Below, one piece after another: positions 22,220 to 23,286 of a DNA stretch of 64,000 nucleotides (the first letter of the stretch is position 1; each line of letters starts with the position of its first letter). The notes beneath the pieces are model-generated. The model made no database searches. It was not told the origin of the DNA and saw only the letters and a list, made by a program, of their open reading frames with translations. This stretch comes from a virus. The DNA is taken from UHGV virus genome UHGV-1366990. One strand, written 5' to 3'. The position numbers were made by a program, and so were the translations under genes.

Positions 22220-22801
22220 TTATAGACCAAATTTGCTACGCCACTTTTCAACCTTGTGTTCAATAGCGTGCTCCACTTTAATGCGAGTGGCCATCAAAGA
22301 GGATCCACGGATCGCCCCTTCCCCACACCCCATGCGCGCAACATGCTTGATTAGGTCATTGACAAGATGATCCAATCTGTCTTGACTGCGATAAGGCTGG
22401 TTGCACAATCGGATAATCCGGCCATGATAATGATGAATAAGATTCAGATGCTTTTGAGGATCACGATCAATCAGACGGAACCAGTCTTCTTCCAACAGAT
22501 TAGAAGAAATATCGTTCACTGTCGCCATGTGGTTGATGACAGAGTCGATCATTTCGGCCTTGTTCAGAGAGCCGCGCATTTGGACGTCGTCATAATCCAT
22601 GACGTACAGAAGGTCAATAGCAGAGATAATGACATCAGCAACTTCGCCATTCAACGGCTCGGAAGATACTATGCCATGAAACACATCAGACAGTTCACAG
22701 ATCTCTTCACCTAGTTTGTTCAGAACAAACACAGGCGAACGGTCTGGGGTATGAGCAGTGCAGTCATAAGAAGTGTCGACGATAGTGTGTAGAAATTTCA
22801 T
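22220..22801 (-). CDS. MazG-like all-alpha NTP pyrophosphohydrolase (possible dNTPase)
   Basis: EEICELSDVF...LNGEVADVIISAIDL matches the MazG pattern ExxE...ExxD. Confidence 0.5.
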   Translation of the reverse strand: MKFLHTIVDTSYDCTAHTPDRSPVFVLNKLGEEICELSDVFHGIVSSEPLNGEVADVIISAIDLLYVMDYDDVQMRGSLNKAEMIDSVINHMATVNDISSNLLEEDWFRLIDRDPQKHLNLIHHYHGRIIRLCNQPYRSQDRLDHLVNDLIKHVARMGCGEGAIRGSSLMATRIKVEHAIEHKVEKWRSKFGL

Positions 22802-23286
22802 TTCAAAGTTCCTTGTATGCGGAGACGATTAATGTGGGCAATGATATAGTCCATAGAGTTTTGAAAACTGTATTTCCCGTTCTGAACATATGCATGGATC
22901 AGAGGGAGCCGACTGTAAGCCAATCTGATCTTCAGACGTTCAGGCATTGTCTGGAGTTTCACGCTAGTTGCAAATAGGATATCGCGCTTGAATTCTTCGG
23001 TAGACGGGTCCAGGACAATGACGCGGGAAGCCGCCAATCCCTGTCCATATTGCTTGGCCTCATAACCGTCGAGCAGGCGCAGGTTGTCATCCCTATACTT
23101 CAGCCAATACCAGTACCCCTCCATGGAGTTAAACACACCATGTTCATGGGTAGTCATTGGATGATGGGCAAAATGCGAGAGGAAGCGCCCGAGTTCCGTC
23201 TGGCTCCGGCTGTAGATGTTGAAGTGATTCTTACCCTCTGTTGCAGGGGTCATCTTGTTCTGTGGAACGCTCATTAACAGCATCAT
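22798..23286 (-). CDS. NADAR (YbiA-like) domain protein, tentative
   Basis: HFNIYS...LGRFLSHFAHHP...THEHGVFNSMEGYW resembles the YbiA/NADAR pattern INFYS...YGDFSNFAAWP...SEHYFQAQKF. ORF-track start at 23301 is TTG; the first in-frame ATG is at 23286. Start uncertain. Confidence 0.4.
   Translation of the reverse strand: MMLLMSVPQNKMTPATEGKNHFNIYSRSQTELGRFLSHFAHHPMTTHEHGVFNSMEGYWYWLKYRDDNLRLLDGYEAKQYGQGLAASRVIVLDPSTEEFKRDILFATSVKLQTMPERLKIRLAYSRLPLIHAYVQNGKYSFQNSMDYIIAHINRLRIQGTLK

Follow-up and report, generated by a model that had tools for sequence, protein, structure and literature searches.

A gene on the minus strand of the virus genome UHGV-1366990, at positions 22798..23286 of the 64,000-nucleotide stretch that we analysed (hereafter the window), raises the question of what its 162-amino-acid product does. 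A preliminary description had pointed to a resemblance with the NADAR/YbiA signature, and had suggested a protein coupled to a MazG-like enzyme with a possible role in ADP-ribose (ADPr) processing or in riboflavin metabolism. We found that the gene encodes a divergent NADAR-fold protein, the orthologue of Shigella phage Ag3 gp010 and a member of PHROG 652. The explanation that we favour, and consider on balance probable, is that it is a stand-alone NADAR-fold ADP-ribosyl N-glycohydrolase of the phage His type, which would strip ADPr from nucleic-acid bases in opposition to host DarT-type toxins.

The open reading frame (ORF) was found on the minus strand as described, with FNIYS, LGRFLSHFAHHP and HEHGVFNSMEGYW in its translation (residues 22-26, 32-43 and 47-59, respectively). 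These motifs are no chance pattern, being the most conserved columns among more than 150 family representatives. From stop to stop the ORF spans 22798..23301 (minus strand) and opens with a TTG codon at 23301; the first ATG, at 23286, gives the protein of 162 amino acids, a length and position shared with the annotated orthologues Ag3 gp010 and FrontPhageNews gp54 and with those of Salmonella phage vB_CECAV_050 and Serratia phage 2050H1. Against the PHROGs collection the protein matched phrog_652 ('unknown function') with an E-value of 2.6e-52. An AlphaFold2 (AF2) model, with a predicted local distance difference test score (pLDDT) of 93.2 and a predicted template modelling score (pTM) of 0.87, has the alpha+beta NADAR fold, that is a helical core with two small flanking beta-hairpins. 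When this model was compared with the PDB using Foldseek, three structures were returned and nothing else below E=2, and the matches in BFVD that lay outside the protein's own family were NADAR proteins of phages and giant viruses. The NADAR relationship is visible only to profile-profile and structural methods.

The clearest link to a characterised protein was with phage T4 gp30.3, also called AdfN. We built an alignment of the gp30.3/AdfN family, all members of which carry PF08010 and several also PF08719, and compared it with alignments of the window protein's family using hhalign. It can be seen that the two families align over most of the domain, both when 26 sequences were used (95.8% probability, E 7e-9, 135 columns) and when the family alignment was extended to 194 sequences (97.4%, E 1.6e-11, 134 columns). 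A hidden Markov model (HMM) of the gp30.3 family, searched against all ORFs of the window, matched the NADAR-like ORF alone (E 2e-4; the next best was 1.1), and the same model matched the cyanophage family member Pam2_108 at 3e-9, which bridges both families. BLASTP of the NADAR-like protein against T4 gp30.3 was not significant, nor was hhalign of the PHROG 652 family against a single canonical NADAR domain, the N-terminus of the polyvalent protein P0134 described below. We conclude that the protein almost certainly belongs to the NADAR superfamily, a placement supported by the gp30.3 profile homology, by a catalytic glutamate, lysine and last-strand histidine, and by fusions and neighbours related to ADPr. 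To judge from these alignments, its family would be a sister clade of gp30.3 and not a core member.

The hhalign register places the expected catalytic residues in the window protein. E56 (codon GAG, 23119..23121, minus strand as are all codons given here) is the predicted catalytic glutamate, equivalent to E36 of T4 AdfN, E43 of PnNADAR and E88 of E. coli C7, and it is present in 151 of 153 family representatives, the other two having gaps at this position. K63 (AAG, 23098..23100) aligns with the phosphate-binding lysine of the same three proteins (K43, K50 and K95); this lysine, seven residues after the glutamate, is found in the NADAR-like protein and its Ackermannviridae orthologues and not in the wider family. 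In published work, mutation of E36 and K43 weakened T4 AdfN, and in PnNADAR E43 contacts the distal ribose and K50 the diphosphate of ADPr. K78 (AAG, 23053..23055) lies in an invariant A-K-x-x-G (A77-K78-x-x-G81) that aligns with the A-K-x-x-G of the gp30.3 family, and its spacing appears to be the same as that of K75...G78 (K-x-x-G) in PnNADAR. H131 (CAT, 22894..22896), the equivalent of T4 H123, is the histidine of the last strand by which the phage gp30.3 type of NADAR is defined, and was present in 149 of the 153 representatives. At position 82 most family members have arginine and the NADAR-like protein has glutamine. Across the same representatives, in window-protein numbering, the near-invariant positions are D17, G18, H21, N23, Y25, S26, T30, G33, F39, G50, F52, S54, E56, W59, Y60, L62, L69, G74, A77, K78, G81, F99, A106, K110, L127, P128, H131 and Y133.

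According to the literature, phage gp30.3-type NADARs are recognised by a last-strand histidine, where the YbiA type has glutamate and the DarG1 type aspartate, and because H131 occupies this position the window protein is best assigned, on its sequence, to the phage gp30.3/AdfN (His) type and not to the YbiA type. The resemblance noted in the preliminary description therefore held for the NADAR superfamily, to which the gp30.3 homology and the Glu/Lys/His residues both point, and failed for YbiA in particular; for the same reason the riboflavin role that it had mentioned is unlikely.

The enzymatic activity, substrate and timing that we infer, and the defence system that would be countered, can be set out as follows. 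The gene would be expressed from an early-region block of HU-like, small membrane protein, NADAR-like, MazG-like and topoisomerase II genes, and its product would bind the ADPr moiety on a nucleic-acid base, most likely at N2 of guanine in phage DNA, where host ADP-ribosyltransferases of the DarT1 or pierisin-like kind would have attached it. With the distal ribose between them, E56 and H131 would cleave the bond between ribose and base while K63, K78 and residue 82 held the diphosphate, and replicable DNA would be restored. Guanine N2 is put forward as the likeliest target because all four NADAR types tested, namely T4 AdfN and three other phage or bacterial types, remove guanine-ADPr. The protein is probably an active ADPr-glycohydrolase, and the chances are about even that its natural substrate is DarT1-type guanine-ADPr DNA.

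To place the protein among its relatives we searched exhaustively with the family profile, which gave 1,857 cluster representatives (at 50% identity) with E<=1e-3, of which 432 had E<=1e-30. By tblastn the family was found in 576 phage genomes, ranging over all Ackermannviridae genera, jumbo phages (121Q, GAP32, Erwinia and SPN3US-like), Vibrio phages and one cyanophage. A scan of 68 longer members identified as fusion partners DUF4326, SLOG domains of the YAcAr, YpsA and DprA types, Macro, DUF488-N3a, a metallophosphatase and an Rv2179c-type exoribonuclease, and the same domain set has been described by Iyer et al. as a viral ADPr-processing network. One polyvalent protein of 1415 amino acids, P0134, carries a canonical PF08719 NADAR domain, a PHROG 652 domain and DUF4326 (residues 10-143, ~550-694 and 1185-1274, respectively), and the presence of two NADAR types in one chain suggests that their specificities are non-redundant. 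On three independent metagenomic contigs, a family member of 205 amino acids immediately follows, in the same orientation, a 437-amino-acid WGR, PARP_reg and PARP protein (on contig L004, 8001-8618 and 6509-7822, respectively; likewise on L005 and L006), and this arrangement looks like a writer and eraser pair for ADP-ribosylation. The other metagenomic contexts consisted of small phage genes in succession, none of them MazG-like.

Two paralogues of the family stand in tandem in Pseudanabaena phage Pam2, genes 108 (L013:2998-3471) and 107 (L013:3455-3931); both are labelled 'YbiA' and neither matches Pfam. In Pam2_107 alanine replaces the catalytic glutamate (VSAYWYHL), and this may be an inactive copy. 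Family members were also found on Pseudomonas megaplasmids of ~1 Mb (L018 and L020) and chromosomes (L019), and the other bacterial loci resemble prophage regions. Across the 17 bacterial loci that we assembled, TerD-domain matches occurred in three proteins, with the locus not mapped and probably from the Pseudomonas megaplasmids or chromosomes, and one locus has a 5-hydroxymethyldeoxyuridine (5-hmdU) DNA kinase (HMUD2) as a neighbour.

A number of points weigh against the reading of the protein as a DNA ADP-ribosyl glycohydrolase directed at DarT-type toxins, and some of them come from gene context. Partner genes outside Ackermannviridae were sought in four metagenomic contexts and the 17 bacterial-genome loci, the latter mostly prophage-like or megaplasmid. 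In the bacterial loci there were 85 neighbour families, and the 25 commonest of them included no ADP-ribosyltransferase or DarT partner. Over the whole of this search there was no MazG-like and no DarT gene, and the one PARP gene was the sole notable neighbour; Macro and DUF488-N3a each occurred twice among the neighbours in the bacterial loci. From these neighbour data we conclude that the PHROG 652 family behaves as an orphan, mostly phage-borne NADAR rather than as a component of a toxin-antitoxin system. Searches and literature supply further points. The preliminary description had regarded missing catalytic residues, or the lack of a NADAR match in profile searches, as speaking against its own proposal. 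The residues are in place; the match was lacking from the standard profile searches, and by the preliminary description's own yardstick the idea would have been dropped at that stage. The protein matched no family at E<=10 in Pfam, including PF08010 and PF08719, the family named for the check, and none at that threshold in NCBIfam, while only noise was returned when all PDB sequences were searched with phmmer or, using the family profile, with hmmsearch. Among close homologues, 0 of 43 had a precomputed Pfam domain, and of the 58 long family representatives scanned none matched PF08719 and one matched PF08010 weakly. The residue equivalences given above were taken from profile (hhalign) alignments, and the searchable literature holds no assay on any PHROG 652 member.

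The last point of this kind taken from the literature is that phage NADARs, according to Iyer et al. (2022), mostly target soluble ADPr derivatives, as those authors argue for most phage NADAR, Macro, SLOG and DUF4326 proteins. A potential explanation for the window protein that would not need to invoke nucleic acids is thus that it acts on soluble molecules derived from NAD+ or ADPr (cyclic or linear ADPr immune signals, or ADPr-1''-P), or that it binds ADPr and does nothing more. PHROG 652 domains are fused to exactly the Macro, SLOG and DUF4326 domains in question, and the failure of the phosphate-binding lysine to be conserved family-wide is consistent with an altered ligand. Johannesman et al. 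also cite a phage NADAR that acts without catalysis, and mere ADPr binding has been reported for the phage anti-Retron-Eco1 protein U56. However, all NADAR types tested to date hydrolyse guanine-ADPr on DNA or RNA, and T4 AdfN, the closest characterised relative, acts on DNA; the near-invariant E56 and H131 favour catalysis over mere binding; and the gene beside one homologue encodes an ADP-ribosyltransferase of the macromolecular PARP type. We therefore regard a soluble ligand as unlikely, while giving it real weight.

The remaining points against a guanine-ADPr DNA glycohydrolase lie in the active site. Position 63 is lysine in Ackermannviridae members only and glycine, serine or leucine in the rest of the family, and the D-x-x-W-G pyrophosphate motif of canonical NADARs has no counterpart in PHROG 652. 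Since both the family-wide lysine and this motif have been lost, the active site is remodelled and its substrate could differ. In addition, the Ackermannviridae proteins depart from three otherwise invariant positions (N38H, Y132A and W147Y), and the changes at 38, 63, 132 and 147 may represent a lineage-specific re-tuning of the active site. Comparison of the sequences thus indicates that PHROG 652 is a distinct, remodelled NADAR clade, that the canonical lysine appears dispensable across most of it, and that the window protein nevertheless has what would be the full Glu/Lys/His set.

We also considered, as a tentative suggestion that is probably wrong, that PHROG 652 makes up an additional NADAR clade, the fifth and so far unrecognised, whose active site has been rebuilt and whose substrate is not guanine-N2-ADPr DNA but, for example, another ADP-ribosylated base, RNA or an NAD-derived immune signal. 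The glutamate and histidine may then have been kept, the lysine and D-x-x-W-G lost, and HxNxYS, W59, K110 and Y133 gained as new invariants, and a differing substrate would explain why polyvalent proteins carry a PHROG 652 domain beside canonical NADAR and Macro domains. The Ackermannviridae version would be a lineage-specific re-specialisation in which the lysine was re-acquired and three invariants were changed. Ackermannviridae DNA carries modified thymidine, and the re-specialisation might be linked to it. A separate suggestion, in which the family is a NADAR specificity variant directed at another macromolecular target (cytosine, adenine or thymine adducts, or RNA that has been ADP-ribosylated by CmdT-like or RhsP2-like toxins), seems to us improbable. 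The family's own invariants, just listed, and the pairing of a PHROG 652 domain with a canonical NADAR in P0134, with the non-redundant specificities that this suggests, speak for it, as does the finding of a cited study that some NADARs also reverse cytidine-ADPr and guanine-ADPr on RNA; the T4 His-type NADAR was, however, tested on both guanine- and cytosine-ADPr, the His and Asp types are grouped in the cited study as guanine-only, and no direct evidence was found for any alternative substrate.

Returning to the favoured reading, an anti-DarT glycohydrolase, a second gene of the window bears on it. The preliminary description had drawn attention to a macro-domain gene 5 kb away and to the prospect of two ADPr-processing candidates in one phage, and both statements stood up. 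The gene, at 16979..17596 on the minus strand and 5.2 kb from the NADAR-like gene, encodes a Tk.4-like macrodomain protein of 205 amino acids (PHROG 335, E 8.5e-61; annotated Tk.4 in Ag3). Its own match to Pfam Macro (PF01661) was below threshold (E 0.11); PF01661 is present in the homologues that phmmer found directly, and identity to T4 Tk.4 is 32% (E 3e-14), so that its homology to macro domains is established. In T4, gp30.3/AdfN is required for resistance to DarTG1, and a 2025 preprint reports that Tk.4 (AdfM) is required for resistance to DarTG2, which ADP-ribosylates thymidine. The two genes have in T4's AdfN and AdfM/Tk.4 a direct precedent, and with both a Tk.4 homologue and an AdfN-like gene in its repertoire the window appears to encode analogues of both T4 anti-DarTG enzymes. 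The Tk.4-like macrodomain would act on thymine-ADPr made by DarT2, and together with the NADAR-like protein it would reproduce T4's two-enzyme anti-DarTG kit.

The gene that follows the NADAR-like gene, at 22220..22801 on the minus strand, encodes a putative all-alpha nucleoside triphosphate (NTP) pyrophosphatase-like, MazG-like protein of 193 amino acids. The label given to it earlier is a tentative one: it matched PHROG 1247 ('MazG-like pyrophosphatase', E 1.6e-35) and its translation has a visible EExxE...ExxD pattern (LGEEICEL...GEVADVI), with weak matches to MazZ (7ody, E 0.25) and, in the Serratia phage orthologue, to PRA-PH (E 0.021), but neither Pfam nor NCBIfam gave any match. A single-sequence AF2 model of this protein had a pLDDT of 37, too low for use. 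The ATGA coupling was also as described, the ATG of the MazG-like gene overlapping the TGA of the NADAR-like gene over 4 nucleotides (22798..22801, minus strand; tcat on the plus strand), and relatives in Agtrevirus, Kuttervirus and Miltonvirus have it too. It does not demonstrate a functional link. The pairing is lineage-specific, because the MazG-like homologues (279 phage records) are all confined to Ackermannviridae-like phages, and the overlap is ordinary phage gene packing and weak evidence of shared function. Overlapping stop and start codons are common in phage genomes.

A role in nucleotide or DNA-modification metabolism together with the MazG-like pyrophosphatase was also weighed, for example as an N-glycosidase that destroys unwanted nucleotides, comparable to the damage control exerted by YbiA in riboflavin synthesis. 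The overlap is kept across three Ackermannviridae genera, the block stands among topoisomerase II, dCMP deaminase and DexA genes, one GenBank orthologue is labelled 'putative N-glycosidase', and one bacterial or prophage locus of the family has the 5-hmdU DNA kinase mentioned above. Set against this, the pairing is restricted to Ackermannviridae, with 279 phage records for the MazG-like gene and 576 for PHROG 652, the family occurs elsewhere without a MazG-like gene, the protein is of the His type and not of the Glu type of YbiA, riboflavin genes are absent nearby, and overlaps of this kind are commonplace. We conclude that such a role is highly improbable.

The surroundings of the gene are those of an Ackermannviridae phage. 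Over the stretch from 22.0 to 24.2 kb, identity is 93-94% with Escherichia phages LHE287, YX22 and AV101 and 92% with Shigella phage Ag3, and weaker nucleotide matches extended to 222 records, nearly all Ackermannviridae. The order HU/IHF-like gene, gene for a 65-amino-acid membrane protein, NADAR-like gene, MazG-like gene and topoisomerase II large-subunit gene is kept in Agtrevirus, Kuttervirus and Miltonvirus, and the NADAR-like gene is therefore a core gene of Ackermannviridae, located in a T4-like early/replication block that also contains rIIA/rIIB, DexA, the Tk.4-like gene and dCMP deaminase. This location bears on the suggestion that the product is a non-enzymatic virion or structural protein, which we think very improbable indeed. 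The orthologues of Salmonella phage vB_CECAV_050 and of a Klebsiella phage are labelled 'virion structural protein', and NADARs are often packaged into myovirus virions according to Iyer et al.; but the label is an automated annotation for which no supporting data were found, the protein has an enzyme fold with near-invariant catalytic residues, its gene stands in the early/replication block and not among morphogenesis genes, and packaging is compatible with an enzymatic function.

Some further features of the region were recorded. A promoter scan gave no excess over shuffled sequences (5 sites, with 3.3 +/- 1.7 expected), and a scan of 22000-24300 for terminator-like hairpins gave 9 sites, with 1.4 +/- 1.1 from shuffles; several of the hairpin sites, such as 23235-23249 (plus strand) within the NADAR-like gene, fall inside coding sequences or on the non-coding strand. 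The gene at 23576-24088 (minus strand) encodes a 'histone-like' protein of 170 amino acids with an HU/IHF beta-arm motif (RNPKTGEELPI) and weak IHF-alpha matches. WWE domains bind ADPr polymers, and a sub-threshold Pfam match to WWE_5 on this protein (E 0.012) overlaps the IHF/HU beta-arm motif and was judged probably spurious. The topoisomerase II subunit ORFs, 18927-20339 and 20260-22170 (both minus strand), overlap by 80 nucleotides, and the medium-subunit gene probably begins at a point downstream of its first ATG. In vB_CECAV_050, Salmonella phage maane and Yersinia phage CAU_YEP3 a homing endonuclease gene stands between the MazG-like and topoisomerase II large-subunit genes (L002:5167-5997), where the window has ~50 bp (22170-22220), and a small additional gene that separates the topoisomerase II subunit genes of Ag3 is absent from the window.

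Phage NADARs and their counter-defence role are already established, surveys place NADARs in ~27% of myoviruses, and the NADAR-like gene adds a divergent member to an established kind and no new mechanism. We found no literature linking Ackermannviridae to NADAR, ADPr reversal or DarTG, the supplementary NADAR lists of Johannesman 2025 and of Iyer 2022 lying outside the comparison; none of the three is mentioned in a 2024 review of Ackermannviridae. FrontPhageNews gp54, which is 59% identical to the window protein, is already annotated as 'putative N-glycosidase' and Pam2_108 as 'YbiA'; several hundred other records are mostly 'hypothetical protein', with a few 'virion structural protein'. The analysis thus offers a fold and a testable biochemical function for a core 'hypothetical' gene of essentially all Ackermannviridae, phages that are widely used in the biocontrol of Salmonella, E. 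coli, Klebsiella and Dickeya, and makes possible the annotation of a large phage family that has no annotation in Pfam, NCBIfam or PHROGs. A further prediction is that Ackermannviridae share T4's two-part anti-DarTG kit, with NADAR directed against guanine-ADPr and the Tk.4 macrodomain against thymine-ADPr, which bears on host range in strains that carry DarTG, and counter-defence by orphan antitoxins would be more widespread than was known. As a natural experiment, the remodelled active site could also show which of the NADAR residues are truly indispensable.

Comparison with known systems sets the protein apart from two of them. YbiA-type proteins (E. coli YbiA, 2b3w), which are N-glycosidases of riboflavin intermediates, are defined by a last-strand glutamate that is histidine in the NADAR-like protein; there is no PF08719 match, identity is 15-18%, and the gene lies in a phage early-gene setting without a riboflavin or LexA-operon context. 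The DarG1 proteins (DarT1-associated NADAR antitoxins of the BC4488 subfamily, such as those of G. lovleyi, 8bat, and E. coli C7) have aspartate at this position, whereas the NADAR-like protein has histidine. It also has no N-terminal extension, its domain beginning within ~15 residues of the N-terminus, and no DarT gene adjoins it in the window, where the neighbours are the HU-like, small membrane protein, MazG-like and topoisomerase II genes; it is an orphan phage gene and not half of a toxin-antitoxin pair. ICP1 AdfB, an 'antitoxin mimic', was considered as a relative and rejected, being an unrelated protein of 77 amino acids.

The closest likeness is to T4 gp30.3/AdfN. Both are minimal, stand-alone NADAR cores of ~150-160 amino acids with the same order of motifs (an LSNF-like strand, an S/G-x-E-G-aromatic helix with lysine at +7, A-K-x-x-G and a histidine in a C-terminal hairpin), and both are encoded by large lytic myoviruses that also encode a Tk.4 macrodomain. 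The two differ in that identity is only ~20% and the PF08010 HMM misses the NADAR-like protein, that PHROG 652 has invariants of its own (D-G-x-x-H-I-N-x-Y-S, EGYWYW, K110 and H-Y-Y) and a lysine that is not conserved outside Ackermannviridae, and that the C-terminal ETVLT..EF motif of gp30.3 is missing. AdfN-Bas32 and AdfN-Bas60, from T5-like and Vequintavirinae phages, are likewise orphan NADARs of phages other than T4, acquired independently, and have been shown to neutralise DarT1. They were detected with DELTA-BLAST, using the conserved NADAR domain, and group with archaeal or bacterial NADARs, whereas PHROG 652 escapes the Pfam NADAR model and is nearest to gp30.3; they provide a precedent for the repeated recruitment of NADARs by unrelated phages.

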